Virus record (IMG/VR): IMGVR_UViG_3300030319_000027
Span: 1-58,779 of that record
Length of the DNA: 58,779 nt
Origin: a virus
Reading direction: 5' to 3' (one strand)
The position numbers and the translations under genes were made by a program. Positions within the stretch are counted from its first letter, which is position 1. Every line of letters starts with the position of its first letter. Below, in pieces: positions 19,592-58,024 of the stretch. The notes under the pieces were generated by a model. That model was not told the DNA's origin, searched no databases, and saw only the letters and a list, made by a program, of their open reading frames with translations.

Positions 19592-19631
19592 CTAAGTCAT
19601 CCGACCACCTCAAAAATCACCTCTCGTTCCA

Positions 19632-22840: not shown

Positions 22841-22842
22841 GC

Positions 22843-26665: not shown

Positions 26666-26854
26666 TTACCTCCACCCCATCACAACAGCCGTGCAAACGA
26701 CCAGACACACGTTGATAAACAGCCAGACAAGCATTGCCTGCCGTTCCTCAAACAGGTTGCTTGCCATGTTTTTGATCGTCCGTTCGGACTGAACCACTAC
26801 CGCCAGCAGGACTAGGCATACCAGCCAGCGAGTTACGAATTCAAACATTGTCAT
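26666..26854 (-). CDS. Small membrane protein
   Basis: Two hydrophobic helices. Confidence 0.4.
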   Translation of the reverse strand: MTMFEFVTRWLVCLVLLAVVVQSERTIKNMASNLFEERQAMLVWLFINVCLVVCTAVVMGWR

Positions 26855-27731
26855 CCTCCATCAAATCGTCCATGCTCAACTGACCGTTGATGTTTTCGTC
26901 CTGCATCCACCAACGAAAAACGTCCATGCCTGTTTTCCAATCGCACGGCAAGCCTTTTGCTTTTCTGACATCAAGCATTCGATCAAACGCCGAAATGTAC
27001 ATTTTTTCGTAGGAAGGCCAGCGCATAAACTCACGCTGTCTGCCCCCCCTACCGGCCATAGGACAGCCAATGCAGCCAACACGCTTTTGCCCTTCGCAGT
27101 AAAGCGGATTGATGGGCAAGTGTTCGCTGTGCGTGTAGTCCCACACATCATCGTCAGACCAGTCCACGATCGGATTGACGGTCATCTTTCCCTTGAGGTT
27201 GCAGGTTTCAAACAGCTGGCGCTTCTCGTCATTGTCGCCCATGAGGATAATGCGCTTCTCTTTGTCTTTGTGCATCAGCTCCATCACGCCACGACTGTTC
27301 TTGCGCCGTAAGGATTCAGCCCACCGCACACCTGTTGCAATGAATCTGTTTTTGCCAGTGTTTTCTTTCAAAACATCACAGCAATACCGCACAATCCGTG
27401 TGGGCGGCATCAGCTTTTGCGGAATCAGTGTCCACATGGACACGGTCTTGTTCTTGTATCGTGGCATGACGATGGAGCATTTGATTCCACGTTCTTCCAT
27501 CGCTTTGAACTGCTCACGAATGAAATAGACCGTCTCCGGCGCATCTGCTGTGGTGTGGCTGTTGACCACCTCAAAGTTGATTCCGGCACGTTCAGCCAGT
27601 GCCACAAGCACTTGCGAATCCTTGCCGCCAGAGTATGTGACCATTAACGGTTTCTTGTAACGATGCTCGGACAGCCGTGCAGCGTCCTGCAAGCGTGCGA
27701 TTGCAAGCTGTTCCTTGTCCATTAGCTCCAC
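26841..27731 (-). CDS. PAPS reductase-family (PP-loop ATPase) protein
   Basis: PP-loop motif TYSGGKDSQV near the N-terminus and a conserved Cys cluster CIGCPM. 296 aa. Confidence 0.75.
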   Translation of the reverse strand: MELMDKEQLAIARLQDAARLSEHRYKKPLMVTYSGGKDSQVLVALAERAGINFEVVNSHTTADAPETVYFIREQFKAMEERGIKCSIVMPRYKNKTVSMWTLIPQKLMPPTRIVRYCCDVLKENTGKNRFIATGVRWAESLRRKNSRGVMELMHKDKEKRIILMGDNDEKRQLFETCNLKGKMTVNPIVDWSDDDVWDYTHSEHLPINPLYCEGQKRVGCIGCPMAGRGGRQREFMRWPSYEKMYISAFDRMLDVRKAKGLPCDWKTGMDVFRWWMQDENINGQLSMDDLMEDDNV

Positions 27732-37183: not shown

Positions 37184-37777
37184 ATGGATGAATATTTGGT
37201 AAGAACGGCCAAAGCATTAGAGATGGCACGGATGCGTTCCGGCTTAAGTCAGCAGAAATTGGCTGCACGGATGGGCGTGAATCGTGGTACGATTGCTAAC
37301 TGGGAGCAAGGTCTGGCGGCTATTTCCCTGCCAATGGCTATGCGCTGGTTCACCTGCTGCGGCGTATCGGTGGCTCGGTACATGGACGCTTGCATTCATC
37401 CGGGGCTGCTGGAGCATCTGGAGGACAACCTTTCCGGCATGGAAAAGCGTAAGATTCTCATAGATGCCATAATGGAGTGTTCTTCCTACGAGATAGATGC
37501 CTTGTTATATATGCGGTACGGAGATCACGGTTCAGACCACATCGGTGTGCTGACGGAGGTTCTGGCAAACCTTCATACGCCATTGAAAGACAGGGTCTCT
37601 GTCTGCCGGATGGTATCGGGCAACTATGAAATAGCACAGGCTACCGGGACAGACCCAGACCCGAACGGAACCGCCCCAAAGATGGAGATTCTCTATCAGG
37701 CGCAAGATGCCGGAACGGAAGCTGCTATGAAGTCCAACGATTCTTATACCGTGAATCCGAATAATATAAGCGGCTGA
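37184..37777 (+). CDS. XRE-family regulator with a C-terminal extension
   Basis: ATG 37184. HTH region RSGLSQQKLAARMGVNRGTIANWEQG. Confidence 0.65.
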   Translation: MDEYLVRTAKALEMARMRSGLSQQKLAARMGVNRGTIANWEQGLAAISLPMAMRWFTCCGVSVARYMDACIHPGLLEHLEDNLSGMEKRKILIDAIMECSSYEIDALLYMRYGDHGSDHIGVLTEVLANLHTPLKDRVSVCRMVSGNYEIAQATGTDPDPNGTAPKMEILYQAQDAGTEAAMKSNDSYTVNPNNISG

Positions 37778-38090
37778 TTGTCGAATTATCGTTGTTTATG
37801 ATGAACATCTTGTACACCTTTCAACGAATTGATTTCTACTTGTGATGCAAACACTTCTCTTGCTGTGCAAATAAATAACGTTAATACGTTATGTTATCGC
37901 TCACTATAGCAAAATTATATTTTGATTGTCAAAACAAAAACCTATGCACATTGAGTACACCGTTGCGTAAAATTGACTTTCATTTTGATAAAATAAGAAA
38001 AAATTAGAGATTATGGAACTTCTTCTTTTGTTTAGTAGAAGATTATTTAACTCTTGTTTATAATCTTGTTTATATATAATGTAAGAATGG

Positions 38091-38181
38091 GTACGAGATG
38101 TGCATGATGGGGTACGAGATGTGCATAAGCGTGTACGAGATGTGCGTCAAATAAGGGGGTCTAGGTGTACAAGATGTGCAT
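38091..38181 (+). repeat. Four iterons GTAC(G/A)AGATGTGC(A/G)T upstream of the Rep_3 gene
   Basis: Starts at 38091, 38112, 38133 and 38167, giving 21-bp spacing for the first three. An AT-rich stretch at 37780-38090 lies upstream. Confidence 0.8.
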
Positions 38182-38264
38182 GAGCCAATATAAGTGAACA
38201 AAACTATTGACGTGTACACCATTATGTGATAAAATTAGTGTACAGAGAAAGGAGATGTACACTA

Positions 38265-39338
38265 TTGGCAGACCTTTATGAAAATAACTTGATCGAAAAA
38301 AGCAAGGCGCTTGTTTGGGCAGAGTTTAATGATTACACTGTTGGAGAGCTGCGGCTTTTGGAAGTGTATCTTAGCCGTATCAACCCTAGAGATGAAAAAT
38401 CTAGTGAAGTCAAGTTTACCCTTTCGGAATATTGCGATTTGCTTGGACTGCGTGTTAATAGCAGGAACATCGAGAAGCAAATCGAACATTTTCTTGGCAA
38501 CGTTGTGGCGCTTCCTCTTAATGACGATGGAAGCGAGTACAATATGTATACGCTTTTTACGAAAGCAAGCGTTACGATTGATAAGAACTTAGGAATGTAC
38601 GTTGTTACTCTCTGTTGCAACCCTGAATTGAGAAGTGTATTCTTTGATATTGCCAAGAGCGGTTATATCAAGTATAGACTTCGCTACACGGTCAAAATGA
38701 AATCGCAGTATAGCATTTTACTTTATTCGATGCTGCGAGATATGATGAATCGCGGCGGAGACCATTTTGATATTAGCATCAATCGGCTTCGTTCACATCT
38801 CGGCGCAAATGCAGGATGCTATGAAAGTTTCAAGAACTTTAGACGGAGAGTTTTGGATGCAGCGGTTGAAGAAATCAATGATGTGTCCGACATTTATGTT
38901 ACTTACGAAAAAATCTCGTTTGGAAACAAGGCGGTTGCGATTTCTTTTGCCGCTAAGAAAAAAGATGAAAAGCCTGTCGCCGAATTAAAGGCGAAAGAAT
39001 ATAAAGAAGAACTTCCATTCGATGATGACATTCCTGTCGGCAAACCGAATAAAAAGGCTTACAGTGATGTAGATTGGGTGAATATAGCGCCAGACCTTGA
39101 GAAATCAGAGTGCATCGGCATTGCAAGAATGGTTGGGAAAAGAATGGCCGAGAGCTTCCCTACTATTAAGGCTCATAAGAAGAAAGCTGCCGTTGTAAAC
39201 ATTGTGAGTAATGCGTACAATAAAATTTTAAGAGACAAGAAGGAGTGGCCTGATAACCCTGCTGGCTATCTTTACAGAGTTATCGAAAACTCTGACTTAG
39301 ACGAGTTTTCGACTTTTGACGATAGCTTCTTGAAGTAG
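38265..39338 (+). CDS. Rep_3-family (RepB-like) theta-plasmid replication initiator
   Basis: The N-terminus NNLIEKSKALVWAEFNDYTVGELRLLEVYLSRI and overall layout are typical of Rep_3. The probable start is TTG 38265 after AAAGGAGA; the track ORF starts at GTG 38226. Confidence 0.7.
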   Translation: MADLYENNLIEKSKALVWAEFNDYTVGELRLLEVYLSRINPRDEKSSEVKFTLSEYCDLLGLRVNSRNIEKQIEHFLGNVVALPLNDDGSEYNMYTLFTKASVTIDKNLGMYVVTLCCNPELRSVFFDIAKSGYIKYRLRYTVKMKSQYSILLYSMLRDMMNRGGDHFDISINRLRSHLGANAGCYESFKNFRRRVLDAAVEEINDVSDIYVTYEKISFGNKAVAISFAAKKKDEKPVAELKAKEYKEELPFDDDIPVGKPNKKAYSDVDWVNIAPDLEKSECIGIARMVGKRMAESFPTIKAHKKKAAVVNIVSNAYNKILRDKKEWPDNPAGYLYRVIENSDLDEFSTFDDSFLK

Positions 39339-39370
39339 TCATACACAGTAAATAAAGAAAGAGTGATAAA

Positions 39371-40150
39371 ATGGCAAAAATCATAGCTGTTGCCAACCAG
39401 AAGGGCGGCACAGGAAAGACTACAACAAGCACCTGTCTGGCTGGTGCGTTGCAGTTGCTTGGAAAGAAAGTGTTGCTGGTGGACTGCGATGCCCAGTGCA
39501 ACGCAACGGACACCTACGGCGCACAGACAGAGGACGTATGTACCCTGTTCGATGTAATGACCCGGCAGGGTACGGTAGAAGAAGGAATCCAGCACTGCGA
39601 AGCCGGTGACATTCTGCCGTCAGACAACGCATTGAAGGACATTGACGAGCAGCTTGTCCGGGACATTGGTAAGAACTTCCGGCTGCGAGAAGCCCTTGAA
39701 AGCGTGTCTGAGCGGTACGATTACATTGTGCTGGACACTCCCCCGCAGCTTGGCCTTGCGCTTGTGAACGCTCTGATCGCCGCTAACAGCATCATCGTGC
39801 CTATTACGGCAGACCGCTATGCACTTGCCGGATTGAGCCAACTTTCGCAGACCATCGGTGATGTTCGCAGATACTTCAACCCGAACTTGAAGATTGAAGG
39901 TCTGCTTCTGAACCAGTACAAGAGCCGGGAGAACTTGTCCAAAGAGGTCGTGGAGCAGCTTCCTGTGATTGCACAGAGCATGGGGACAACGCTGTTGGAC
40001 GTGAAGATTAGACCGTCTATGGGCGTTCGTAAGGCGCAGGCAGAGCGGCACAGCCTGTTTAGCGGTGATACGGCAAAGAGCACTAGCGCAGAGGATTTCA
40101 AGGCGTTGGCAGAGACGATTGTGGAGGGTGATAAAAATGAGATTGATTGA
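39371..40150 (+). CDS. parA: ParA/Soj-family partition ATPase
   Basis: Deviant Walker A KGGTGKTT. 259 aa with no N-terminal HTH, so type Ib-like. Confidence 0.9.
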   Translation: MAKIIAVANQKGGTGKTTTSTCLAGALQLLGKKVLLVDCDAQCNATDTYGAQTEDVCTLFDVMTRQGTVEEGIQHCEAGDILPSDNALKDIDEQLVRDIGKNFRLREALESVSERYDYIVLDTPPQLGLALVNALIAANSIIVPITADRYALAGLSQLSQTIGDVRRYFNPNLKIEGLLLNQYKSRENLSKEVVEQLPVIAQSMGTTLLDVKIRPSMGVRKAQAERHSLFSGDTAKSTSAEDFKALAETIVEGDKNEID

Positions 40151-40454
40151 TTCTGAAGAACTCGTAAATTACTATTTGCAGAACCAAGCTGACCAAGCAA
40201 GATTTCGCAGTGAAACAGCAAGTGTATGCGATGTTTTAGAAAATGTGATTCGCCATGTAAAATTGATGGATGAAATTCAGCCGAAAGAAACGGCAAAGTG
40301 GGAAGTTCATCATCGAGTGGACGAGGATGGAGAACATTGGAATTGGCTCGAATGCTCAAACTGCCATTATAAAATTGCACGTTATCCGAAAATGTACCGT
40401 GAGACAAGATTTTGCGCTTGTTGCGGAGCAAAGATGGAGGATGAAGAAGAATGA
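40137..40454 (+). CDS. Zinc-finger hypothetical protein
   Basis: ATG 40137 overlaps the end of parA. CSNC ... CACCG motifs. Confidence 0.45.
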   Translation: MRLIDSEELVNYYLQNQADQARFRSETASVCDVLENVIRHVKLMDEIQPKETAKWEVHHRVDEDGEHWNWLECSNCHYKIARYPKMYRETRFCACCGAKMEDEEE

Positions 40455-41023
40455 AGTCAACCAGCAAAAAAACATCTGGCTTGTTGGGCGGATTTGACTT
40501 CCAGCCTGTTTTTTCGGAACATACATTAAGCCGAAGTGAGCCAAAGGAAGAAGAAGTAAGCCAAGCAAAGCCGAATAATGCCGAACAAGCACAGATTAAG
40601 CCTAGTGATGCCACAGACAGCCGTGTACAGCCGAGTGAAGCAGAATTAGGCGGTATTAAGCCAAAGCAAGCCAAAGACGGCGAAAGACAGCCAAGTGGTG
40701 CCGTGTTAGGCGAAGGTAAGCCAAAGAAGCTGAAACAGGCAAAAGAAGTGCAGCGTTTGATTGAACAGGGCGATGTACCCGGCGCACTGGCTGAAGCTGG
40801 ACTGACAAAGAAAAAAATCCCGATGCCGGAATCGCATCAGGGCGTTGCAAGCGGTGATGGCAAGCGTTCGAAGCGCATTACCATCCTTATGAGCGAGGAA
40901 GAGCGCAAGTACATCAACCGTGAAGCAAGACGGCACGGAATGACGATTGGACAGTTTGTGTACGCTCTGGCTGCTGCTTCGGCAGACGGGAAGATTGAGT
41001 TGGAGGATTTCTTGGAGGATTGA
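40451..41023 (+). CDS. Ribbon-helix-helix protein with a low-complexity N-terminal half (candidate centromere-binding ParG/omega analogue)
   Basis: C-terminal KRSKRITILMSEEERKYINREARRHGMTIGQFV fits an RHH fold pattern. The start overlaps the preceding stop. Confidence 0.55.
   Translation: MKSTSKKTSGLLGGFDFQPVFSEHTLSRSEPKEEEVSQAKPNNAEQAQIKPSDATDSRVQPSEAELGGIKPKQAKDGERQPSGAVLGEGKPKKLKQAKEVQRLIEQGDVPGALAEAGLTKKKIPMPESHQGVASGDGKRSKRITILMSEEERKYINREARRHGMTIGQFVYALAAASADGKIELEDFLED
40527..40726 (+). repeat. Array of 20 consecutive 10-bp registers carrying a phased GCC motif
   Basis: 14 of 20 decamers have GCC at offset 4-6 and 4 more have GC(A/G). Recurrent units are TAAGCC(A/G)AAG and ACAGCC(G/A). 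Confidence 0.8.
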
Positions 41024-41076
41024 GGTATGTCGTGAAACACGATATACCTGCAAACTGTATCTTCCGGTAGTAGGTA

Positions 41077-41105
41077 TTGACTTTTAAGCACACAAATAGT
41101 ATACT
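41077..41105 (+). promoter_or_regulatory. Sigma70-like promoter
   Basis: TTGACT, 17 nt, TATACT. Confidence 0.55.
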
Positions 41106-41135
41106 TAATGTGCGCTCAAAAGTGGAGGTGAACGC

Positions 41136-41309
41136 ATGAGTGCAAAAATGGGAAGACCAAAGCTGGAAAACCCGAACAGTGTTCGCACAAGTGTCCGTTT
41201 GGACGTGAATACTGACAAACAGCTTTCGGATTATTGCGAAAAAAACGGCATTTCTAAGGGAGAAGCCGTTCGTAAAGCTGTCCAGCAATGGCTTGAACAT
41301 CAAAAATAA
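41136..41309 (+). CDS. 57-aa CopG/RHH-type protein
   Basis: Not in the track. RBS GGAGGTG precedes the start. MGRPKLENPNSVRTSVRLD...GISKGEAVRKAV fits an RHH pattern. Confidence 0.55.
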   Translation: MSAKMGRPKLENPNSVRTSVRLDVNTDKQLSDYCEKNGISKGEAVRKAVQQWLEHQK

Positions 41310-41443
41310 AAAATCCCCTAAACTGTTCGTAACTTGGCGGTCACCGGCAGTTTAAGGGATTACACTCCATGCGATTATGGGTGATAAATCCATTATATCA
41401 TCTTCATAGTTGCATTACAAGCAAGATTTTTGTGGTAAAGCCA

Positions 41444-42298
41444 ATGAACATTCCAGCAACGAAAGAAGAGATTCTCGAAAACTTCAAGAAAAACAGCAAC
41501 GGCCGTACGCTCAACAAGGATGATTATGAGATTGCAGAAGCATTATCTCGAATCACTTACAAGGCGTATGAAATCGGCATGGAAGATGCAAAACAGTTAA
41601 ATATGGAGGATATGATGGATAGCAAGAGATGTAACGCACTTCACGTTTTTAAGAACAAGACCTTTGGTCAGCTTCGCACGATTGAAGAGGATGAAAAGAT
41701 TCTTTTCTGTGCTTCTGACGTGGCAAAGGCATTGGGGTACAGCAATCCGAGGGATGCAATTTCCCGCCATTGCAGGGGTGTCGTGAAACGCGACACCCTT
41801 ACGCAGGGAGGAATCCAAGCAATCGCTTTTATCCCAGAGGGCGATGTTTACCGTCTTATCACCCACAGCAAGTTGCCCGGCGCAGAGAAGTTTGAGAGTT
41901 GGGTGTTTGATGACGTTCTTCCGTCTCTTCGAAAGGATGGCTATTACGGCCTTGCTCCGCAGGAGAACAAGCCTGACACACAGAACGATGCAATTTTGCA
42001 AGTGCTGATGAAGAACACGGAAGTCCTGCAAGCCATCGTTCAACAAAACCAGCAGATTATGATTGCTCTTACTAACCTGTCCGTCAACGATGCAAAGCGC
42101 ACGATGGAGATTCAGCCTTATACTTCCCATCAGGGGCAGAAGGGTGACGGAAAACGTAGCAAGCGGATCACAATCCTTATGAGCGACAGCGAGCGGACGT
42201 TTGTTACAAGAGAAGCACGAAAGCACGGATTCACGGCAGGGGAGTACATTTACAACCTGTCCGTTGCAGCATCGAAAGACCAAATTGACTTAGGCTGA
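41444..42298 (+). CDS. BRO-N domain protein fused to a C-terminal RHH module
   Basis: BRO-N motif FGQLRTIEEDEKILFCASDVAKALGYSNPRDAISRHC...GDVYRLITHSKLPGAEKFESWVFDDVLPSLRKDGYY. The C-terminus KRSKRITILMSDSERTFVTREARKHGFTAGEYIY is paralogous to the end of 40451..41023. Confidence 0.7.
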   Translation: MNIPATKEEILENFKKNSNGRTLNKDDYEIAEALSRITYKAYEIGMEDAKQLNMEDMMDSKRCNALHVFKNKTFGQLRTIEEDEKILFCASDVAKALGYSNPRDAISRHCRGVVKRDTLTQGGIQAIAFIPEGDVYRLITHSKLPGAEKFESWVFDDVLPSLRKDGYYGLAPQENKPDTQNDAILQVLMKNTEVLQAIVQQNQQIMIALTNLSVNDAKRTMEIQPYTSHQGQKGDGKRSKRITILMSDSERTFVTREARKHGFTAGEYIYNLSVAASKDQIDLG

Positions 42299-42318
42299 TA
42301 AGATTGGAGGATTGACGC

Positions 42319-42594
42319 ATGATGAGGTCGAAGGAATTTTACGAAGGAAGTATTATCCGTTTACAGAAAATGGTTAAACGTGGCATTTACGTTCTTTTGT
42401 TCGATGCTTTTGCCGTATCAGTTCAGATTCCGTTTATCTTTGCTGGTAAATGGGTTGCAACACACTTGATTTTGTCCATCGCCGTATCTTTTGCAGCGGG
42501 AATTAGTTTTAACACGCTTGTGGATAGTAAAAGACAACTTGATATGTACAAGGCAGATATGGAATTGTACTACACAAGTTCGTTGGAGGATTGA
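42319..42594 (+). CDS. Small membrane protein (2 TM)
   Basis: 91-aa ORF in the AT-rich island. Confidence 0.5.
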   Translation: MMRSKEFYEGSIIRLQKMVKRGIYVLLFDAFAVSVQIPFIFAGKWVATHLILSIAVSFAAGISFNTLVDSKRQLDMYKADMELYYTSSLED

Positions 42595-42597
42595 CAA

Positions 42598-43029
42598 ATG
42601 GGCGTAACCATCAAATGCAAAAAGACTAAGCGTGAAATGGATGTGGGCTATTTCGGCTTTTTCAAGTTGAGAGCGAAAGTTGCAGAACTTGTTGGTTTGG
42701 AAGTCGGAGAACACTATAAAAAACTTGATGACATTCTCTATATGCCATCTCCCGAAAAAGAACACGCTCTTGAATCTTACAATGACAAAACGGAACGATT
42801 GATTGAAAGCAAAATGCTTCCGATTAAAATTGCAGATTTCCTTTATCAATCGGACTGTGACGGAAAGATTCGATACGGTGCCTGCAAGGAAATCTTGAAA
42901 GTTATAGGTGATTATGACGATAGCATTATTTACGGATATGCAGGTAGAGAAAATCCCGCAAAGTTCAAAGACTTCAAAGAAATCCTTCAAGATTGCGTAG
43001 ACAATAAGTGCTTTATGATTTGGGGATAA
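42598..43029 (+). CDS. Hypothetical soluble protein
   Basis: 143 aa, starting 4 nt after the preceding stop. Confidence 0.5.
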   Translation: MGVTIKCKKTKREMDVGYFGFFKLRAKVAELVGLEVGEHYKKLDDILYMPSPEKEHALESYNDKTERLIESKMLPIKIADFLYQSDCDGKIRYGACKEILKVIGDYDDSIIYGYAGRENPAKFKDFKEILQDCVDNKCFMIWG

Positions 43030-43080
43030 CAATAACCCACTGTGTAGTCACAATGACCGCACAGGGGAGAAAGGAATAAT

Positions 43081-43350
43081 ATGAGCAAAAAAGCAAGAAT
43101 GTACATAAAATGTTGCCTAGAGAGAAACAAAAGAATTATATATCACGATTTATTGTTTCTTTTGTTTTCTGCGTTGATTGAAGGATATTTTATTCGTCAA
43201 TTCATATTTGAAAATCATTCGTTTGTTTATATTATGCTTATTATGCTGGACGCCTTTCTCGCATTCAATGTAGCAAAAGAGCTATCCGAATTTGAAAAAG
43301 AATCTGAAATTTTAAAAAATATATTAGAAAAGGGTGATAAAAAGTGCTAA
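43081..43350 (+). CDS. Small membrane protein (2 TM)
   Basis: 89-aa ORF. Confidence 0.5.
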   Translation: MSKKARMYIKCCLERNKRIIYHDLLFLLFSALIEGYFIRQFIFENHSFVYIMLIMLDAFLAFNVAKELSEFEKESEILKNILEKGDKKC

Positions 43351-43808
43351 TATATGTTTTTGCAGGAATATGCTTTATAGGGATGCTTATTTGCGTGAGT
43401 TCTTTTTTTGCGGGGCCATTTGACAACGAGGGGGGAAAAGAATATATAATAATGGCTGTTGCAGGGATTGTTTTAACAATACTTGGCGTTGTTCTAATGA
43501 TAGCAAACGTAGAATACAATTCGTCCCATCCTATCGTATCAAATTATGATTTACAGGAAATCGAACCGGGAATATATGCCTATACATCGACTGTCGTTTC
43601 AAATATTCCAGCTGAAAATTATGAAATGTGTACAGTTTTAATAAATGGGCAGTACATTACAATTAAAGGAACCGTAAAAATAGCGAAATCGGATGGAAGC
43701 ACTCCTAAAATAAAATGGGAAAACAGGCGAATAGTAAACGGAGATACTGTTACGATTTATGCGGATATAAACAAAATAAAAAACAACGGCGTAAGAACTA
43801 TATCTTAA
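43344..43808 (+). CDS. Membrane-anchored protein (2 TM plus extracytoplasmic domain)
   Basis: 154 aa, overlapping the upstream gene. Confidence 0.5.
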   Translation: MLIYVFAGICFIGMLICVSSFFAGPFDNEGGKEYIIMAVAGIVLTILGVVLMIANVEYNSSHPIVSNYDLQEIEPGIYAYTSTVVSNIPAENYEMCTVLINGQYITIKGTVKIAKSDGSTPKIKWENRRIVNGDTVTIYADINKIKNNGVRTIS

Positions 43809-43818
43809 CGAGGACTTT

Positions 43819-44001
43819 ATGGAAGAATATAAAGATAGTATTGCGATTATTGAAGAAAGCGAAATCGAAAAGCGAAAGTCTGAATATGGAAATCGCTTTT
43901 GTAAAATAACTAAAGAAATGATAGAAAGTTTAGGAAACGAGAAAATTCTAATGATAAATGACGGAGAATATTGTACTTTTTTGAAATATTTCCAAGATTA
44001 A
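43819..44001 (+). CDS. Small hypothetical protein
   Basis: 60-aa ORF. Confidence 0.4.
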   Translation: MEEYKDSIAIIEESEIEKRKSEYGNRFCKITKEMIESLGNEKILMINDGEYCTFLKYFQD

Positions 44002-44006
44002 ACAAA

Positions 44007-44047
44007 CCCCTGTGTAGCCGTTAAAAACTACACAGGGGTTCTGTTTT
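44007..44047. terminator. Bidirectional terminator
   Basis: CCCCTGTGTAG-N10-CTACACAGGGG followed by a T-rich tail, between convergent genes. A related hairpin lies at 43036-43067. Confidence 0.7.
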
Positions 44048-44684
44048 ACTTATCAGCAATGCAATCCCAGTAGAGATACGCCTTGCCATCTGCGGCATCT
44101 GCGTCATCAAGGAACGCCTTTGCCATGTCAGCGTAGAAGCCCGGAGTGTCAACGGACTGACGCTTTGCAACCTGACAATAATCCGAGTACATCATGTTCA
44201 TGACAGCCCAGAAATCGTTCGGGTCACAGGTGATATTCCGCTGTTTGGCAACGTCCTGTGTCTGTTCCAGCGTCCAGTGACAGCCTTTCGTGCCGTCAGC
44301 GTTCACCATGCTGTCGCACCATTCCTCCGCTTCATCGTGGGTGAGGTGCTTGCGTGGCATCTTGATGGAACGGCTGTCCGCACCGCCATGCTCATACTGT
44401 CCAGACCGCTTGTCCCAGTCGCCGTTCTGCGAGAAGCCGATCTGCGGCATCTTGCGACCATACTCTACGTCAGGGTAGCGGGGGATAGGGTAGGGGTCGA
44501 TGTAGCGGTTCTCCTCCTGCGGGTAGTAAGGATAGCGGTCGTTGCCATCTTCCAGCTTGCGCAGACGGCGTTCCAGATCACGTTCCCTGCGGTCGCGCTC
44601 TTCCTCAAGACGGTCACGTTCCGGCTCACGGTCTTTGTCGTGTTCACGGAGCATCATCATGCGGCGAAAATTGTTCTTGCCCAT
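44046..44684 (-). CDS. Hypothetical protein (charged R/E/D N-terminus, Pro/Tyr-rich linker, conserved-looking C-terminal domain)
   Basis: 212-aa ORF, the last gene of a 5-gene minus-strand operon. Confidence 0.5.
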   Translation of the reverse strand: MGKNNFRRMMMLREHDKDREPERDRLEEERDRRERDLERRLRKLEDGNDRYPYYPQEENRYIDPYPIPRYPDVEYGRKMPQIGFSQNGDWDKRSGQYEHGGADSRSIKMPRKHLTHDEAEEWCDSMVNADGTKGCHWTLEQTQDVAKQRNITCDPNDFWAVMNMMYSDYCQVAKRQSVDTPGFYADMAKAFLDDADAADGKAYLYWDCIADK

Positions 44685-44697
44685 AATCTATACCTCC

Positions 44698-45069
44698 TCA
44701 AGAAATGGACGCAGGCGCACCAGCGTGGGAGCGGCAGAAGCAGCCAAGATATTTGAATGTTCCGGTGCCGGTCGCAGACGTTGCCACGCGGGTAGCGTAG
44801 CGGGTGCGGGTGTGGATGCTCTCGGCGGTCGCCTGAGCGCAGTTGCAGTCGGTCAGAGGGTATGCGGTCGTTCCTGCACCGATGGTGATGACCACCGGGG
44901 CGTTGATAGTGGTCGTGTCCGGCAAGCTCTGGGCGACCACAATGCAATAGCGCTCTCCGTTTTGGTATGCGCCAGCAGGGATATTGATGGTCAGCGTATC
45001 ATTAGCGAACGTGACCGCATTCGAGATGACGAGGTGCGGGCAGAGTTTGCAGCTTGTTTTGCAAGCCAT
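44698..45069 (-). CDS. Cys-rich hypothetical protein
   Basis: 123 aa with MACKTSCKLCPH..., CNC and GCFC motifs. Confidence 0.5.
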   Translation of the reverse strand: MACKTSCKLCPHLVISNAVTFANDTLTINIPAGAYQNGERYCIVVAQSLPDTTTINAPVVITIGAGTTAYPLTDCNCAQATAESIHTRTRYATRVATSATGTGTFKYLGCFCRSHAGAPASIS

Positions 45070-45154
45070 AATGTTTTCCTCCTAAAAAATCAGGGGCAGA
45101 GGTGTCTTACCCCTGCCCCGATGGTTCACCCGGTGTTATCGGGGAGTGTGTAGG

Positions 45155-46027
45155 TTAGCAGCAGCCGCAGCAGTTCACGCCCACGTTGGGGTTTGCCACC
45201 TGATAAGCGGGAATCGGACGAGGGTTGACCCGGTTCAGGATGGTATCGGTCTGCTGGGACATCACGGTGGTCAGAAGCGCATTCTGACGATCCTGAGAAG
45301 CGGCAAACTTCAGGCTCTGGTTCTCAGCGGTCAGAGTGGCAATCTTATCCTGCGTGAAGTAGTCCATCATGCTGCGGAAGTTGGCGTTGCAGTTGTCCAC
45401 GATGGCGCGGGCGTTGTCTGCGATAGCCTGACGGGTAGCGCAGTCCTGCTGTGCAATGGTGTACTTCAGGTCGCCGATCAGCTGCTTGTTCTCGCAGCAG
45501 CAAGACGCAAGCTGCGTCTGGATAGCGGTCTGACCCGCCTGACGTGCGTTGCCCTCCTGCATGATAGCAAGGCTGATGGCGTTGTCGCCGTTGGACACGC
45601 TGCGTTCCAGACCGTTCACGAGCTGTGCGTTCTGGTAGCCGAGCTGACAGATAGCGTTGTTCACGCTTGCAAAGCCGTTTGCGATATTGGCGTTGACGCC
45701 ATTCATCTGCGCCAGCTGGTCATAGCCAAGAGAGCAGATACCGCTCTGGATGCCAGCCAAAGAACGGGAAGTGTCCTGCTGGTAGAAGCCCTCAGACAGA
45801 GCCGCACGAGTATCTGCGCCGCCCTGACCGGTTGCACCGGTGCCCACCAGATAGGGGATGTAGCTGTTCATGCCGTTGTCACCACCGTTTCGACCGTAGC
45901 CGTTTGTGCCCCAGCCGAAGATGATGGCGAGGATGATAACCGCCCACAGACCTTCGTTGCCGAAGAATCCGCCGTTGTTATTGCCGCCGTCCTGCCCAGC
46001 CAGATAGCCAGTTGCAAAATCGTCCAT
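45155..46027 (-). CDS. Membrane-anchored hypothetical protein ending in CCGCC
   Basis: 290 aa with a Gly/Asn-rich N-terminus, one TM segment (LWAVIILAIIFGWG), a Gln/Asn/Ala-rich helical region, CCC internally, and a C-terminal NCCGCC. Confidence 0.55.
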   Translation of the reverse strand: MDDFATGYLAGQDGGNNNGGFFGNEGLWAVIILAIIFGWGTNGYGRNGGDNGMNSYIPYLVGTGATGQGGADTRAALSEGFYQQDTSRSLAGIQSGICSLGYDQLAQMNGVNANIANGFASVNNAICQLGYQNAQLVNGLERSVSNGDNAISLAIMQEGNARQAGQTAIQTQLASCCCENKQLIGDLKYTIAQQDCATRQAIADNARAIVDNCNANFRSMMDYFTQDKIATLTAENQSLKFAASQDRQNALLTTVMSQQTDTILNRVNPRPIPAYQVANPNVGVNCCGCC

Positions 46028-46148
46028 AACAAAACTCCTTTCAGTTTTGCGTTATGCTATCCCACCGCCGTGTGCGATGGGCGAAGCCAAACAAAAGCGG
46101 TTTTTGTCAAGTCCGCAAAACTGAGAAGCGTTTCGCTTAGAGGGATGC

Positions 46149-46400
46149 TTATTGGGGCAGAGTCAGGTTCAAAGAACCCGCCAATTGGTTAAGGTCGATG
46201 TGATATTCTTTTGAAAGGTTTTCCGCTATTGCGCGAAGCTGCTTTTCGCTTTTCCCTTGTATTAGGGTCAGTCCGCGCATAAATGGTGCGCTCTGCCCAC
46301 TTAACTGCTGGATAAGCCCCATCGGGTTCTGCCCGGCACGAGCCAAATTTGCAAGCTGCATGATGGGGCTGTGCGTAATCATGTCAAATGGAGAGGGCAT
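46149..46400 (-). CDS. Hypothetical protein
   Basis: 83-aa ORF. Confidence 0.45.
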   Translation of the reverse strand: MPSPFDMITHSPIMQLANLARAGQNPMGLIQQLSGQSAPFMRGLTLIQGKSEKQLRAIAENLSKEYHIDLNQLAGSLNLTLPQ

Positions 46401-46402
46401 TT

Positions 46403-46921
46403 TTATTCTCCTTTCTTTGCTGTGGCAGCGGGCTTAGAAAAGCTCTTTTGCCACTTTTCCAGTTCATCCAGCCTGTGGACGAGGGCGTTATACTGCTCAA
46501 TAGGCACATACTGCTGTGTCGGTGCAGCGGTCTGTTGTGCCTGTTGCGCCTGTATCTGCCGCCATGCTTCCGGGCTGTAAAACTCCTGCACATAAGATTC
46601 ACAGGTGTCCGGGTTAAGCCGCTTGCAGTAGATCACACCGCTGCGCAAATCCGGGCAGTAAGTCGGTCTGCCGTACAGGTCGGACGGTATCGCCAAAAAC
46701 TCCTCCCTGCTGGACACAGGTCTGCCAAGCAACCAACCGCCGTCCTGTACCGACTGCTGAACAGGCTGCTGCCCATTCATCGGCTGCGGACGCTGCTGCT
46801 GTGCCTGCTGCATCTGCGTGTTCGGCAGGGGAGTGGCAAGCCCTACCGTGCCCATGCCGCCGTAAGGATTGACAGGCTGTTGCGGAACGTAGGGCGCTCC
46901 GGGTGTCGGATAATAGCTCAT
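46403..46921 (-). CDS. Pro/Gln-rich hypothetical protein
   Basis: 172 aa, the first gene of the operon. RBS GGAGGGATGAACC precedes the ATG. Confidence 0.5.
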   Translation of the reverse strand: MSYYPTPGAPYVPQQPVNPYGGMGTVGLATPLPNTQMQQAQQQRPQPMNGQQPVQQSVQDGGWLLGRPVSSREEFLAIPSDLYGRPTYCPDLRSGVIYCKRLNPDTCESYVQEFYSPEAWRQIQAQQAQQTAAPTQQYVPIEQYNALVHRLDELEKWQKSFSKPAATAKKGE

Positions 46922-47026
46922 GGTTCATCCCTCCTATTGCGCCCAGTGTACCGCACCGGGAGAAAACGAGAGACAACGAAGGTACAACGAAGGACAAAAA
47001 TGCTCTATTTTGCCAAAAGAAAAAAA

Positions 47027-49475: not shown

Positions 49476-51938
49476 TTATGTGTTGGTCATTGATGCCACA
49501 GCATCCTCAAGGTCAGTGATGCGCTTGATGGGGTCTGCTCTGCCGGTCACCGTCACGCTGTCCGCGTCGGTCAGCAGGGTGTTTACACCGGGCAGAGCAG
49601 GGATAGGCTGCGCTCCTGTGGCAGTGAAGGGTTCAGGCTCTTTCAGCGACTGATACACAATCTGCACAGGCGTTCCTGCGGCATATTGTGCAGCACAATA
49701 ATCATTCAGCTCATCTACACTTGAGAACAAGTTCTGCAAACGGTTTGGCTGCGTGAAAAAGAACGCATATGGTTCATTTACTGAAAATTTAGAGGAAATG
49801 AAATGGCTGCATATAATTTTAGATGCGCTAGTTGCACCATCTGCTGTGTGGTACGGCAAATTCCAAAATCTATCATTACCATAAGATGAGAATTTGATTT
49901 TTTTAGCATCAATGGTTGCTATTTTCCACGTCTCCTTCCCATCACCCGTCACAGCATCCACCGTGCCGCCGTAGATGGTGCTCGGTAGGGTCAGGATGGC
50001 GGTTTGGCCGGTGTAGGGGGTGTATTCGGTGGGCGAGGTGGAGCCGGGTACAAGTGCAAAGTTTTTTAAATCAGCCGATGTTTCCTTCGCAGAGAGGCCA
50101 CCAGTAAGGCCCACCTGGAAATAAGCCGCGCCCTGTACCGTAAATGTTATCACCTTGTGCGTACCGGACGGATTGTACGGATACAGTAATGTAGCCTTAT
50201 AGTAGGTATTGTGGATTGTATCATACCCTTCCATTCTGGGCAGAATAGATACATCCACCATATTGCCGCTGGCATCATAGCCGCGCAGAAGAAAGCGCCC
50301 ATGTGCTGCTGTATCAGCATCAATCTGAATAGTGTACGTTCCTGCGGGGTATTTTCTTGCAAGCAAAATATAACTAGCGCCCCAGCCAGATGTATCTACC
50401 ACGTGGATGGTGCTGTCATCTACCGTGCAGTCTTTGTTCTCGGCAACGCGGGACACATCCAGCAGATTCTCCCCGCACCGCTCGGCCGTCACGCTGTCAC
50501 GTCCTTTGATGGGGCGAATGTTTTCGTAGGGTGCATAGGCGGTAGCAGTCGTGCCTTTCTCTATCTGCGGTTTTGCCGAAGCATTATCCAGTGTGCCAGA
50601 TGCGGCAAAAAACAAGGTGGCTTTTTGTATGTCACTCTCTACTGTAAACGTACATGGCTGTCCAATAATTTGCGCGGCAATCGTAGGAGCATCATCTGCA
50701 TCCCTATTGAGAATTGATATACGAAAATGCGACATTGCGCTAATCGTGTATGTACCAGCAGGAAGCGAAAAATAATCAGAGTTGTAGTATGAAGCCCCAT
50801 TTGCCGTTCCAGTTGCTGTTACAGTGCCATCGGGGGCTATTGTCCACGTTAATCCATTGTTCAAGGTTCTTTCTGGCATCCATGCGGGATTAAACAGATT
50901 TTTCCCTCCACCCGCCGGATACGGCGTTCCCTCGCCCTCCTGCGTCGGTTTCCAGCTCACCTTACAGCCCAGCGGATATTTCGCCACCGGGTAGCACACA
51001 GCAGGGTTGCCGCTTTCTTCCAGCGGCGGGCAGAGCACGTCCACGATGTGCTTGCTGCTCCAGGCGTCGGTGCCGACTGTGGTGTCATCTATGACTGCTT
51101 TGGTCGCCAGCGCGTCACCTGTCACTTTAGCGTCAGCTGCCTGCCCGCTCTGGCTCAGGGTGGCATCCACGGTGGCGTCTTTGCCGGGTGCTCCGTCCTT
51201 GCCGTCCGCGCCAGCAGGGCCCGCCTCGCCGGTGTCACCCTTCTCGCCCTGCGGCCCCTGTGGGCCGGTTTCTCCGGGGTCACCTTTGGGGCCTTGAGGG
51301 CCGGGCAAACCTTGTGCGCCCTGTGGCCCTTCGGGGCCGACCGGGCCGGTAGCTCCCGGCTCGCCCTTAAAATCTCCGCTGGCAATGCCGTCATTGAGCT
51401 CCTGCAAGCTCTCGGCGGCCTTTTTCTGTGCGTCACCGGCAGCTTTCTCGCTGGCAGCGGCCTTTTCGGCAGATGCCCCGGCCTGCTGTGCTGCCGTCTG
51501 TGCATCGGACTTGGCCTGCTCTGCGGCGGTGGCATCGGTGTGCACGGCATCCACCAGCTCCTGCCAGGCGGGTGTGCCGGGCTCCGGCATGCTGCCGTTC
51601 TCCGTGCCGGAGTTGGCAGCCACACGGTAGCGCAGATCTGCGCTGGTCACCGTGCGGGTGCCGTCACTGCCCTCAAAGGTGACGCACCCGCTGCCGGGCT
51701 GTGCGGTCACGCTGGCGGGCACGTCCACATAGCCGTCCACCACCAGCGAGGATGCCGGGTCTTTGCCGTCCGGGACGTGCCAGAAGCAACGGATAGCCAG
51801 CCCTTTCCACTCGCCGGAAGCGGTGACTGCAAGGCGGTACACGCCCCGGTTTTTGGTGTAGCCAAAGCGCACCAGCTGCTCATAGCCCGGCACTTTGACG
51901 ACGCCATTGGATGCGAGAGATACGCTTAGCTCGATCAT
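49476..51938 (-). CDS. Tail fibre with a collagen-like triple-helix segment
   Basis: 820 aa. Uninterrupted Gly-X-Y repeats span aa 192-253 (nt 51180-51365). Confidence 0.8.
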
Positions 51939-51941
51939 GGG

Positions 51942-52277
51942 TTACTCCTTGTTGATGGTAGGCTTCTTTTCTGCCAGTGCCTTCTTCATCAGGCTTACGG
52001 CCTTTTCAATCACCGCGTCAAGCACTTCATCCGTGATGATAGGCTTCAGCCATGCAGGGCAGGCCGCACGCAACGCGTCAAAGACCTGCTTCTTTTTCTT
52101 TGCGCCCTGACCGCTGCCCATGATGCTGTCCTCGGCCTTGCACACGAGGTCATAGGCCAGATCTTTGACCAGCTGCTTATAGCCCATGCGGATAGCGCCG
52201 ACAGCCAAAGCCACAAAGCCGACGATAATAAGAACGATTGCGACGGGGGCGGGGATAAAGTTAAGCATTGCTTCCAT
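51942..52277 (-). CDS. Holin (LL-H-like family)
   Basis: N-terminal TM segment, then ...AEDSIMGSGQGAKKKKQ...VLDAVIEKAV pattern. It lies adjacent to the endolysin. Confidence 0.6.
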   Translation of the reverse strand: MEAMLNFIPAPVAIVLIIVGFVALAVGAIRMGYKQLVKDLAYDLVCKAEDSIMGSGQGAKKKKQVFDALRAACPAWLKPIITDEVLDAVIEKAVSLMKKALAEKKPTINKE

Positions 52278-52650
52278 GATTTGTTACTCCTTTCAGTAGG
52301 TAGTTGTTGATATCGGATTTGCTTTTTTGCATACCTTCGCGGTTATTGCCGGATAGTTGCGCATCCAGAAGATTCTGCACGCCAACAAGGACAAGACGCA
52401 TTTCTTCATCGATGCCGTCAAAGCGCGTCAAATCGCGTCTAAGGGCCGCGGCGTGCTGCGTGGAAACAGTTTCTACCGCAGCCAGTCGCTTTTCAATGGT
52501 GTCAATGCGCTTGTTCTGCGCATCGTCGGGGGCCTGTGCATTTTTGACGTACTTGTGGATGATGTCCAGCACCTTGTCGATGGTGATGACCGCAGCGCAC
52601 AGGCTGCCCAAGATGCCCAGCACCCACAGTAGAGCTTCTTTTTCGGTCAT
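52261..52650 (-). CDS. Membrane-anchored coiled-coil lysis accessory protein
   Basis: N-terminal TM segment. It lies between the endolysin and the holin. Confidence 0.45.
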   Translation of the reverse strand: MTEKEALLWVLGILGSLCAAVITIDKVLDIIHKYVKNAQAPDDAQNKRIDTIEKRLAAVETVSTQHAAALRRDLTRFDGIDEEMRLVLVGVQNLLDAQLSGNNREGMQKSKSDINNYLLKGVTNHGSNA

Positions 52651-53303
52651 TTGCCCTCCCGGAGACGGGTCAGGCCCTTCTTGCAGATGATACTGGTATA
52701 GTCCTTGTAGGCAATGGACAGGTCAACATTGCCGGCAACGCCCGGCACGCTGCCGGAGCTGGTATGCTGCCACATCCCATAGGGGTATACCGTGGCGGGC
52801 TTCTGGCTACGGTAGGCCGCCAGCCACACATCATAGGGCTTGAGCGCCGCGCCGGTCATGTAAAGGTGCTTGTCTGCATAGCTCAGGTAGGTGTACAAGA
52901 TAGAGTAAAATCCCCAGTCCTGCACCGTTTTCAGCTCGTAAGCAGTCAGGTCGGTCAGCACCTCTTTGCTAAGCTTCGCGGGCAGCGCGTCCTCGACGTC
53001 CACAGCCACCGGCAGGCGCAGCGTCTTGCCGATCAGGGCGCTTTTCAGCAGGGCCAGCTCCTTGTCAGCTTCTGCCCGGTTGACGGCCTTAAAGTAGCCA
53101 TACACGCCCACCGGGATGTCCAACCGAGTGCACTCTGCATAGTTGCGCTCAAAGGTCGGGTCAAGATACGGCTTGCTGGGTACGCCTGTCTTGCTGTTGC
53201 CCATTGCCCGCAGCATCACACCGTCAATTTTTCCGCTGGCCTTGACCTTGTCCCAGTTGATGTTGCCCTGCCAGCGGGAAACGTCCATGATTGTTTTACT
53301 CAT
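52647..53303 (-). CDS. GH25 muramidase endolysin
   Basis: The N-terminus DVSRWQGNINWDKVKASGKIDGVMLRA is typical of GH25 lysozymes. Confidence 0.85.
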   Translation of the reverse strand: MSKTIMDVSRWQGNINWDKVKASGKIDGVMLRAMGNSKTGVPSKPYLDPTFERNYAECTRLDIPVGVYGYFKAVNRAEADKELALLKSALIGKTLRLPVAVDVEDALPAKLSKEVLTDLTAYELKTVQDWGFYSILYTYLSYADKHLYMTGAALKPYDVWLAAYRSQKPATVYPYGMWQHTSSGSVPGVAGNVDLSIAYKDYTSIICKKGLTRLREGK

Positions 53304-53468
53304 TTAAGCCTCCTTGTTCTTATTGCCGGTCTTGTCCTCCAGCAGCTCGATCAGCTCCTTATACTCGGCCTCGGTGATGCGGCCAATGGCGTAGAAAACG
53401 TCCAGCTTGTCCGCAAGACCAGCGGTCTGTCCGCGCTCGATCAGGCGTTTACAGATACGATACAACAT
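53304..53468 (-). CDS. XkdX-like small protein
   Basis: ATG 53468 follows AAGGAGGT. The ...GRITEAEYKELI pattern is present. Confidence 0.5.
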   Translation of the reverse strand: MLYRICKRLIERGQTAGLADKLDVFYAIGRITEAEYKELIELLEDKTGNKNKEA

Positions 53469-53481
53469 AGTTTTTACCTCC

Positions 53482-54642: not shown

Positions 54643-55090
54643 ATTGGTCCTCCCCAGCCATGTATTCGCCAGAAAAAGTAACGTAAGTTTTGGCGATTGA
54701 TTCTATGTCTGACAAAATGCTTTCAAGTTGGTTCATTGTCTCGAATCCAAGCCTATCCATAGACGTAGGTGTCGGCGCAGTTTTGGCATCCCCTGAGTTT
54801 TTTGAGCGGATGGATTCAACATTTGACAGCCACCTAGTAGCATCTGACGTGGTAAGATACCCGTTTATGTCCCAGTCCGTCTTGACATCTACGTCCGCAC
54901 CGAGAAGTGAAGCAAGCTCGGATATGCCGGTTTCTATTCTCGAAAAATCTCTGTAGTCAAGAGCCCCTTTCATACCGGAAAGCCACTCCGCTTTTTCCTC
55001 ATCCGTCCAGGTCCCGTTTACGGCTTTACCATAAATGAACTTTAGGCGGTCAACATCGTCTTGGGTTCTGTCTGTAATCCAAATCGCCAT
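54632..55090 (-). CDS. Tail-associated hypothetical protein
   Basis: 152 aa, between the tail-tip and fibre genes. Confidence 0.45.
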   Translation of the reverse strand: MAIWITDRTQDDVDRLKFIYGKAVNGTWTDEEKAEWLSGMKGALDYRDFSRIETGISELASLLGADVDVKTDWDINGYLTTSDATRWLSNVESIRSKNSGDAKTAPTPTSMDRLGFETMNQLESILSDIESIAKTYVTFSGEYMAGEDQYGF

Positions 55091-55099
55091 AGTCCCTCC

Positions 55100-57625: not shown

Positions 57626-57640
57626 AAATAATCACCTCTC

Positions 57641-58009: not shown

Positions 58010-58024
58010 AAAACGTAAACCTCC

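Follow-up and report, generated by a model that had tools for sequence, protein, structure and literature searches.

We report here on a replication and partition cassette in a phage genome, IMG/VR virus record IMGVR_UViG_3300030319_000027, which was analysed from position 1 to position 58,779, i.e., over 58,779 nucleotides (nt); this entire stretch is referred to as the window. The cassette lies in a rightward block on the plus strand in which the gene for an XRE-family regulator is followed by an AT-rich region, a set of iterons, and the genes for a Rep_3-type replication initiator, a ParA partition ATPase and a protein with a ribbon-helix-helix (RHH)-like C-terminus. The window represents the complete, circularly closed genome of a siphovirus, and the phage gene set for packaging, head, tail and lysis is complete. 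Specifically, an exact direct repeat of 99 nt is common to both ends and, when this repeat is merged, a minus-strand open reading frame (ORF) of 1,289 amino acids (aa) that matches tail tape-measure families runs from 58025 across the junction to 3214; together these two features show that the window is one circular permutation of a closed genome of ~58,680 bp. An initial annotation had described a circle with a complete set of virion and lysis genes, and both descriptions hold, the latter through the genes for terminase, portal, capsid, scaffold, tails, fibres, holin and endolysin. The host is most likely an uncultured member of the human-gut Clostridia and the phage is most likely temperate. 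Moreover, the comparisons presented below suggest that it is probably kept as a low-copy circular plasmid in lysogeny, and not integrated.

Origin, initiator and partition genes

The XRE-family (CI-like) regulator is encoded at 37184-37777 on the plus strand (HTH_3, 40 bits; matches to PHROG transcriptional repressor families), as previously annotated, and its gene opens what we refer to as the 'lysogeny' block. The 310 nt located 3' of its stop codon (37778-38087) constitute an AT-rich region with a GC content of 27.7%, compared to 49% for the window, and this value drops to 16.7% for positions 38040-38087; these last 48 nt hold two TCTTGTTTATA repeats of 11-12 nt (38052-38074). The region adjoins the iterons and is a probable DNA-unwinding element. 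Four direct iterons of 22 nt are present at 38088-38185 on the plus strand (starts at 38088, 38109, 38130 and 38164; core GGGTACGAGATGTGCAT). The AT-rich region and the four iterons had thus been recognised in the initial annotation, which gave their spacing as 21 bp throughout; this last part does not hold, the spacing being 21, 21 and 34 nt. Exactly four instances of the 13-nt iteron core, GTRYRAGATGTGC, are present in the window, in all cases at the origin. Two distal inverted iteron copies are located at 37801-37819 and 37943-37961, with arms that show 95% and 79-83% complementarity to the direct iterons; the first of these contains an inverted core with one mismatch (37803-37815).

Upstream of rep there is a promoter-like site, TTGACG-17-TAAAAT (38207-38235, plus strand), which agrees with the consensus at 10/12 positions and has a TG extension. 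Half-iterons with the sequence GTGTACA overlap this site, with a half-site within the TTGACGTGTACAC -35 region, and the same half-iteron/promoter arrangement is present in other Rep allele classes (see below); Rep probably represses its own promoter via these half-iterons. The origin shows direct repeats approximately two helical turns apart, beside an AT-rich element and upstream of rep.

The initiator gene (38265-39338, plus strand) encodes a Rep_3-type iteron-binding protein, for which the profile search gave 76.6 bits for Rep3_N (residues 23-170) and 55.5 bits for Rep3_C (residues 184-241), i.e., far above the gathering scores and in keeping with the theta-type initiator initially assigned. 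The ORF opens at 38226, and the true start is probably the TTG at 38265, giving 357 aa, the same length as for the 96%-identical homologue P0001. Residues 30-229 align to RepE of the F plasmid (PDB 1rep, E=2e-6) across both winged-helix (WH) domains, and the protein is thus a WH1+WH2 initiator with an extra C-terminal extension of ~110 aa past WH2. Rep matches 989 PLSDB plasmid records. In total 93 homologues were found; those that are ~50% identical reside on metagenome contigs of 55-62 kb in which the gene order is conserved, while ~45%-identical homologues are present on 5-6-kb Rep3+Mob_Pre plasmids. The nearest cultured match is a 6.9-kb Mediterraneibacter gnavus plasmid (NZ_CP084015, 40.6% identical). 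A nucleotide search of PLSDB with the window gave no match, and no PLSDB plasmid record has a related terminase except for a 25% match in Enterococcus. A Rep3+Mob_Pre small-plasmid unit together with a second Rep3 gene was also seen on a 357,939-bp contig of a [Clostridium] leptum metagenome-assembled genome (MAG; GCA_009741525.1, VOFH01000469.1; locus L007), between the gene for a giant surface protein and glycosyltransferase genes, and represents either an integrated small plasmid or a misassembly.

F, pSC101, R6K and pPS10 have iteron-controlled Rep_3 replicons, which are copy-limited by design. The window resembles these theta plasmids (F RepE, pSC101, R6K pi, pPS10) in having a WH1+WH2 initiator, direct iterons spaced 21-22 nt and located next to an AT-rich element, and a rep promoter with an inverted half-iteron. 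It differs in that the replicon is embedded in a complete phage genome, in the C-terminal extension of Rep and in that the DnaA box is degenerate.

The parA gene (39371-40150, plus strand) encodes a ParA partition ATPase of 259 aa, i.e., of type-Ib size (AAA_31, 184 bits), and here the profile search agrees with the previous assignment. It carries the deviant Walker A motif KGGTGKT at residues 11-17 and matches the PDB ParA structure 8ray (E=1.7e-41) and Soj, with alignments beginning at residues 1-4 and no N-terminal helix-turn-helix (HTH). ParA is 87-99% identical across the family, and its 90% cluster comprises 6,359 member sequences. Following parA, a small variable ORF (40137-40454, plus strand; 105 aa from the ATG at 40137) lies in front of the partner gene; it is present in some relatives only, other small ORFs take its place elsewhere, and it has no family match. 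The next gene (40451-41023, plus strand) encodes a protein of 190 aa that is repetitive in its N-terminal half and ends in a weakly matched RHH domain (NikA-like, 25.1 bits, E=2e-5). This protein is 83-93% identical in most relatives, is always encoded downstream of ParA, and is a probable centromere-binding partner of ParA. Its N-terminal half (window 40520-40730) consists of approximately six ~10-aa repeats (xxxKPxxAxx), which is seen as a 10/30-nt periodicity in the DNA.

Relatives, Rep-iteron classes and the integrase locus

Scanning IMG/VR with the neighbouring DUF7841 protein gave 574 relatives, the best 80 of which (median 57 kb) were examined. Among these, 71 reach parA, and all 71 have ParA, the 190-aa protein and Rep3, while none of the 71 has an integrase. 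The flanking genes are 90-98% identical to those of the window while Rep is often ~50% identical. Clustering of the Rep proteins of 78 loci resulted in six classes with 44, 14, 10, 6, 3 and 1 members, which are 47-69% identical to one another, and each class has its own iteron sequence. The layout is common to all six: a DnaA-box-like site and an AT-rich stretch are followed by a pair of TCTTGTTTA repeats, by four or five iterons spaced 21-23 nt apart and finally by a promoter that carries an inverted half-iteron. At the place of the degenerate DnaA box of the window, class A relatives have a perfect box, TTATCCACA, and class C relatives have TTTTCCACA; likewise, inverted copies of the class C iteron are located at equivalent places in one relative (L001). 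This covariation of Rep and iterons argues that the Rep-origin pairs are functional, and it constitutes the strongest sequence evidence for this. The Rep-iteron pair is an exchangeable specificity cassette, with six alleles on otherwise near-identical genomes. The XRE regulator also comes in two alleles among the relatives (~95% and ~59% identity), and these reassort independently of the Rep alleles.

We tentatively suggest, as one possibility among others, that a single abundant gut phage-plasmid species keeps at least six interchangeable Rep-iteron specificities and two repressor alleles, with ParA and its partner conserved, as a balanced polymorphism of incompatibility types. Similar to the immunity types of phages, they would allow related prophage-plasmids to share one cell or to displace each other, and the polymorphism would be driven by recombination with small plasmids resident in the same hosts.

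The Rep, ParA and RHH protein clusters come from metagenomes only, and the homologues with NCBI as source are metagenome assemblies. In the raw assemblies that were looked up, the longest contigs carrying the cassette are of 57.6-63.1 kb, and of the 130 blocks of the collection with the Rep allele P0011 none has a contig >200 kb. These sizes speak against integration but do not by themselves distinguish a plasmid prophage from a virulent phage. An IMG/VR contig of 115,402 bp (3300045988_050806; L071, L151, L241 and L305) has the phage initiator of the second replication module (see below) twice, 59.3 kb apart and 97% and 95% identical to that of the window, which indicates that this contig consists of two variants head to tail and is not a host junction. 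It is not an exact dimer, as a unique 30-mer occurs once.

With respect to integration, no match to Phage_integrase or to large serine recombinases was obtained for the 50 Pfam-scanned ORFs of at least 140 aa, a set that left out 26 other ORFs of this size read as shadows on the non-coding strand. Furthermore, tblastn of five divergent tyrosine integrases against the window gave E=0.04 at best. The absence of a tyrosine or large serine integrase, as noted initially, is upheld by these searches.

An integrase is present, however, in a relative. The scan of species-representative genomes gave a single match, of the integrase type and from no cultured host: a 42-kb MAG contig (L013; Clostridiales HRGM_Genome_2450, JAHZDE010000016) in which a 380-aa tyrosine integrase (10862-12004; Phage_integrase, 74 bits) is encoded with an XRE homologue on one side and the DUF7841 block on the other. 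Within IMG/VR, a phage family of ~42 kb (L098-L127) is characterised by this integrase, which is often situated at the contig end, as in trimmed proviruses. The XRE homologue of this family (56% aa identity) ends 5 nt before the co-oriented integrase gene, and the block from DUF7841 to p172 is 88-90% identical at the nucleotide level to window 44083-47000. The XRE homologue, the DUF7841-to-p172 block and parts of the lysis region are thus common to the ~42-kb family and the window, with order and orientation unchanged, but the family has the 380-aa tyrosine integrase in place of the 6.2-kb Rep/Par cassette, and its early region beyond XRE shows little nucleotide similarity (compared within ±10 kb). 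The order XRE-integrase-DUF7841 in the relative indicates that the cassette sits at the integrase position of the lysogeny module.

The counterpart of the cassette was identified on small plasmids. Two independent, circular plasmid-like assemblies of ~9.5 kb, L316 (9,615 bp; ENA ERZ16268053 scaffold_7751) and L317 (9,546 bp; Logan ERR10610439_75027), have circularly permuted gene orders, and one of them has a 99-nt end overlap. Both carry iterons (GGGGGACAAAAAACCGA, four copies), Rep3, a small ORF, ParA, a 102-aa RHH protein and a SprT-like protein and, further on, an HTH protein and a resolvase, while phage genes are lacking. Compared to the window, Rep is 49%, ParA 63% and the C-terminus of the RHH protein 42% identical. 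The differences are that the 102-aa RHH protein follows directly after ParA, while that of the window has 190 aa with a repeat-rich N-terminus and is preceded by the variable small ORF, and that the resolvase is merely 29% identical to the recombinase of the window. Given this end-to-end homology (ori-Rep3-ParA-RHH), the cassette of the phage corresponds to a whole captured plasmid backbone, and the ParA and RHH pairing is conserved also outside phages. Plasmids such as L316 and L317 represent a likely type of donor for the maintenance cassette of the phage.

The second replication module and the mode of maintenance

A second replication module is encoded on the minus strand. Its first gene (22202-22939) encodes a 245-aa DUF6291 protein with an O-like C-terminus (DUF6291, 36.6 bits; PHROG 678, 'replication initiation O-like', E=6e-11), followed by a DnaB-family replicative helicase (20997-22205; DnaB_C, 172.5 bits; PHROG 19, 255 bits), which the TIGR03600 phage_DnaB model scores at 176.6 bits, i.e., under the cut-off of that model, and by a phage-type replication initiator (20119-20838; O-like/DnaD-like). 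The latter had been annotated as a RepA_N initiator, and two plasmid-family initiators in one genome had been considered noteworthy. The RepA_N profile, however, gave 19.8 bits against a cut-off of 30, HTH_36 being the sole domain that passes (26.9 bits; cut-off 25), and the best PHROG matches are 428, 186, 270 and 678 (replication initiation, DnaD-like, O-like). We conclude that this is an ordinary phage-type replication module with an O-like/DnaD-like initiator and its own DnaB, and not a plasmid-family replicon. The element therefore has one plasmid-type and one phage-type replicon, as in P1.

The DnaB helicase initially proposed for this module is real, and the repeat-rich, AT-rich origin proposed with it is borne out as an origin-like region. 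This non-coding region (19360-19909, minus strand) holds 10 RCGACTATY boxes around an AT-rich segment (19600-19880, 35% GC), and one box is found at the start codon of the initiator gene (20837-20845). In the window this motif was observed 12 times, compared to 1.04 expected by chance, and 11 of the 12 are located in 19360-20845, all on the minus strand; the array is kept in 69 related loci, with a median of 12 boxes. Moreover, three 23-nt repeats followed by an A-rich run are situated inside the initiator gene (20401-20468), as in lambda O. The initiator allele (window and relatives L233-L312) was found in only 139 viral contigs, compared to 574 with DUF7841 and at least 571 with the resolvase; being rarer than these backbone markers, it indicates that the lytic replication module is mosaic within the family too.

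The resolvase-size recombinase mentioned in the initial annotation is present as well. This small serine recombinase of the resolvase/invertase type (13027-13602, minus strand; 191 aa; Resolvase, 122 bits; PHROG 125 'DNA invertase', 177 bits) is co-transcribed with a 109-aa HTH protein (13599-13928). It occurs at 93-99% identity in at least 571 viral contigs, many of which also hold the cassette, and is accordingly a core gene. No convincing inverted repeats that would delimit an invertible segment were seen near the recombinase. Upstream of the HTH-resolvase operon, the AT-rich non-coding region 13930-14200 has three TGATAGTA motifs and a strong promoter-like TTGACA, and may constitute an operator or a res site.

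How these parts might work together can be outlined as follows. In the prophage the XRE repressor would silence the long leftward early operon, and Rep bound to the iterons would open the AT-rich element and recruit host replication proteins for theta replication. Rep would limit its own synthesis at its promoter, with the extra iterons restraining copy number, while ParA and the RHH protein would segregate the copies and the conserved small serine recombinase would resolve dimers. Upon induction, the antirepressors AntA and Bro-N would act, the leftward operon would express the O-like/DnaD-like initiator and DnaB, and the repeat-box origin at 19.4-20.5 kb would fire and amplify the genome for packaging. 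It is plausible, considering gene order, that one replicon serves maintenance and the other lytic growth, as suggested previously.

The locus swap, the homology to the 9.5-kb plasmid backbone, the Rep-iteron covariation and the contigs of at most ~63 kb lend support to the phage-plasmid interpretation, i.e., to the prophage maintained as a plasmid that had been proposed initially; it is well supported, though not proven. For stable extrachromosomal maintenance in lysogens, the contig sizes (≤63 kb) and the integrase of the relative at the same locus are indirect indications.

Several points weigh against it. The case is built on sequence comparison throughout, and the assignment of the two replicons to phases is drawn solely from gene orientation and the analogy with P1. 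The XRE protein lacks a recognisable autocleavage domain, which makes it an atypical repressor. The NikA-like score of the 190-aa protein is under the Pfam cut-off of 27, such that the RHH protein of the initial annotation holds as a protein with an RHH-like C-terminus and falls short as a family assignment, and a PDB sequence search with this protein gave no match. The recombinase has its best matches among 'DNA invertase' families, and dimer resolution is a role that we infer for it. IMG/VR contigs of 110,248, 100,585, 84,528 and 76,952 bp were left out of the junction check. A 99-nt terminal overlap is likewise expected of a circularly permuted, headful-packaged virion genome and does not prove a plasmid state. 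Furthermore, no centromere-like repeat array was detected near parA when direct and inverted repeats were searched for in 39300-44100; the search yielded just the coding periodicity of the 190-aa gene and an operator-like palindrome at 41080-41123. The centromere may be located elsewhere. The RCGACTATY array at 19.4-19.9 kb was considered as a candidate, but its position directly beside the HTH_36 initiator gene, with one box extending over the start of this gene, makes it less likely.

The alternative that fares best, while unlikely, is a virulent or carrier-state phage without a stable plasmid prophage, where Rep_3 is one of the regular initiators of genome replication and ParA has another task, e.g., the positioning of replication or packaging. 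The contig sizes fit such a non-integrating phage equally, in that a strictly virulent phage would likewise never occur in long contigs, and the failure to find a centromere in 39300-44100 and the occurrence of ParA genes in some phages not known as plasmids point the same way. This alternative does not account for the cassette replacing the XRE-integrase lysogeny module at the same locus in the relative, nor for the whole cassette being homologous to a plasmid backbone free of phage genes. Moreover, given a complete second module that includes a helicase, Rep_3 is redundant for lytic growth, the genome encodes both a repressor and antirepressors, and six Rep-iteron specificities are what would be expected from incompatibility selection among co-resident plasmids.

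Two further alternatives are each given little credence. The filamentous phage phiRSM integrates via a resolvase-like enzyme, and the small serine recombinase (13027-13602) could by the same token act as the integrase of an integrating temperate phage, with the Rep/Par cassette as a passenger or used transiently; its conservation as a core gene (at least 571 contigs, 93-99% identity) and a secondary match to PHROG 95 'integrase' (96 bits) are in line with this. Its best match is nevertheless of the invertase/resolvase type, its 191 aa comprising a catalytic domain at the N-terminus and an HTH at the C-terminus, and no raw contig in the looked-up blocks runs past ~63 kb into host DNA. On the 9.5-kb plasmid, too, Rep/ParA is accompanied by an HTH protein and a resolvase, i.e., the classic plasmid set for multimer resolution, and the recombinase gene adjoins the packaging genes and not the repressor, where the integrase of the relative sits.

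The other, just as improbable in our view, keeps the phage-plasmid and has the roles of the replicons reversed or shared: the O-like/DnaB module would take over plasmid maintenance, or the two origins would be active in lysogeny and lytic growth alike, and Rep_3 would drive the lytic amplification. Variability of the lytic-type initiator allele, as judged by its 139 viral contigs compared to 574 for the backbone marker, would suit this. On the other hand, Rep_3 and ParA are encoded on the strand of the repressor and not within the leftward early operon, they take the very place of the integrase in the relatives, and iteron-controlled Rep_3 replicons are generally limited in copy number. The O-like/DnaB module, on its part, is situated inside the early operon among PAPS-reductase and AAA_24 genes, with ERF and SSB at equivalent positions in relatives. 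Finally, an assembly chimera of plasmid and phage, conceivable for a single metagenomic contig of unknown origin, is in effect refuted by the XRE-ori-rep and accessory genes-DUF7841 junctions recurring in dozens of independent assemblies (ENA, Logan, JGI, IMG/VR) and by the tape-measure ORF reading across the end junction.

Phage P1 of Escherichia coli, to which the phage-plasmid had been likened together with N15 and SSU5, has oriR/RepA with iterons, adjacent parA-parB-parS, the lytic oriL/repL, Cre-lox, the C1 repressor and an antirepressor. The two share the overall design of a complete tailed phage without integrase, an iteron-controlled initiator with a partition operon directly downstream, a second, separate lytic replication module, a site-specific recombinase, a repressor and antirepressors. 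They differ in that ParA of the window is of the short type Ib with a probable RHH partner, compared to type Ia ParA and an HTH ParB in P1, in that the recombinase is a small serine enzyme while Cre is a tyrosine enzyme, and in that the window represents a ~58-kb siphovirus of gut Clostridia while P1 is a ~94-kb myovirus. Tblastn with Rep against 50,697 phage records gave five matches, none from Escherichia, Salmonella or Klebsiella phages, no enterobacterial phage was among the ParA matches at E<=1e-15, and the terminase relatives are phages of Firmicutes and others. The element is consequently no sequence relative of P1, N15 or SSU5; the proposed likeness applies to lifestyle and layout, and does not extend to shared Rep or ParA with enterobacterial phages.

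By terminase, the closest cultured phage is Clostridium phage Maintenon of [Clostridium] innocuum (51.5% identical; 57-kb genome). It also has a replication initiator and DnaB-like helicase, a PAPS reductase, an antirepressor and repressor/Cro genes, but is an integrating prophage whose integrase and LexA-like repressor are encoded at one end of the genome, its DnaB is 26% identical to that of the window, and tblastn detected no Rep_3. Maintenon was rejected as a close model, the terminase being moderately similar only and the replication genes remote.

To our knowledge, nearly all studied phage-plasmids come from cultured Proteobacteria and a few Bacilli, and gut cases have mostly been inferred by clustering with these. 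The family is undescribed while its lifestyle is already known: we found no description of it in the literature, in which gut phage-plasmids are reported at the population level only. Phage-plasmids as such are an established class of temperate phages (PMC7969092) and are frequent in gut phage populations, with 399 viral operational taxonomic units, or 6.2% (10.1101/2025.02.07.636470). Judged by public data, the present family belongs to the more abundant phage lineages of the gut (ParA cluster of 6,359; >570 IMG/VR contigs), and its interest is increased by this abundance, by the swap of integrase and plasmid genes at one locus and by six covarying Rep-iteron specificities on a conserved backbone. 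The integrase-bearing mosaic relative with the same flanks and the phage-free plasmid with the same backbone provide a natural comparison. The system is therefore suited for studying the switch of temperate phages between integration and maintenance as a plasmid, the exchange of replicons between phages and small plasmids of gut Clostridia, and a possible influence of plasmid incompatibility on the structure of phage populations. Lifestyle predictors based on integrases will label phages of this kind virulent.

Virion genes, early region and accessory genes

The head, packaging and major tail genes constitute a minus-strand block (4037-12425; family matches and tRNA search) with major tail (4037-4474), capsid E, i.e., a lambda-E-type major capsid protein (6144-7220), scaffold (7595-8221), SPP1-type portal (8271-9803) and large terminase (10704-12425), and with a tRNA-Met gene at 10204-10281 as the sole RNA gene in the window. 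The tail fibre, lysis and tail genes, also identified by family matches on the minus strand, span 49476-58779 and comprise a collagen-repeat fibre (49476-51938), a holin-like protein (51942-52277), a GH25 endolysin (52647-53303), a Big_2/DUF6273 protein representing a Big_2 fibre (55100-57625) and the tape measure (from 58025 across the junction to 3214). Two ORFs on the plus strand, 182-1003 and 2475-3794, are shadow ORFs of the tape-measure gene and have no family match.

An AntA/ORF6C antirepressor is encoded at 15019-15762 on the plus strand (ORF6C, 95.9 bits; AntA, 78.1 bits). The early operon on the minus strand includes a protein with a PAPS-reductase domain (26841-27731, 78 bits), and a gene like it adjoins the replication genes in Maintenon. 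GC skew was dropped as evidence for an origin, as it changes near 37 kb at the same point as the coding strand.

The end of the cassette is a variable accessory part (41024-44041, plus strand), the presence of which differs among relatives. It starts with an RHH_1 (CopG-like) protein of 57 aa (41136-41309, family match). A 44-nt imperfect palindrome (41080-41123) overlaps the promoter-like site of the RHH_1 gene and is probably its operator. Next is a Bro-N/RHH fusion (41369-42298, family match) that is present in some relatives only; its terminal RHH domain and the C-terminus of the 190-aa ParA partner are 61% identical, and it could bind the same DNA sites. A low-GC island (42300-44003, 35% GC) then encodes small, partly membrane-type proteins (42319-44001) that vary between relatives and have no Pfam assignment, and PADLOC gave no match for the accessory genes. 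The island looks like a cargo (moron) region, and the cassette ends with a bidirectional terminator hairpin at 44004-44041 that has a stem of 16 pairs.

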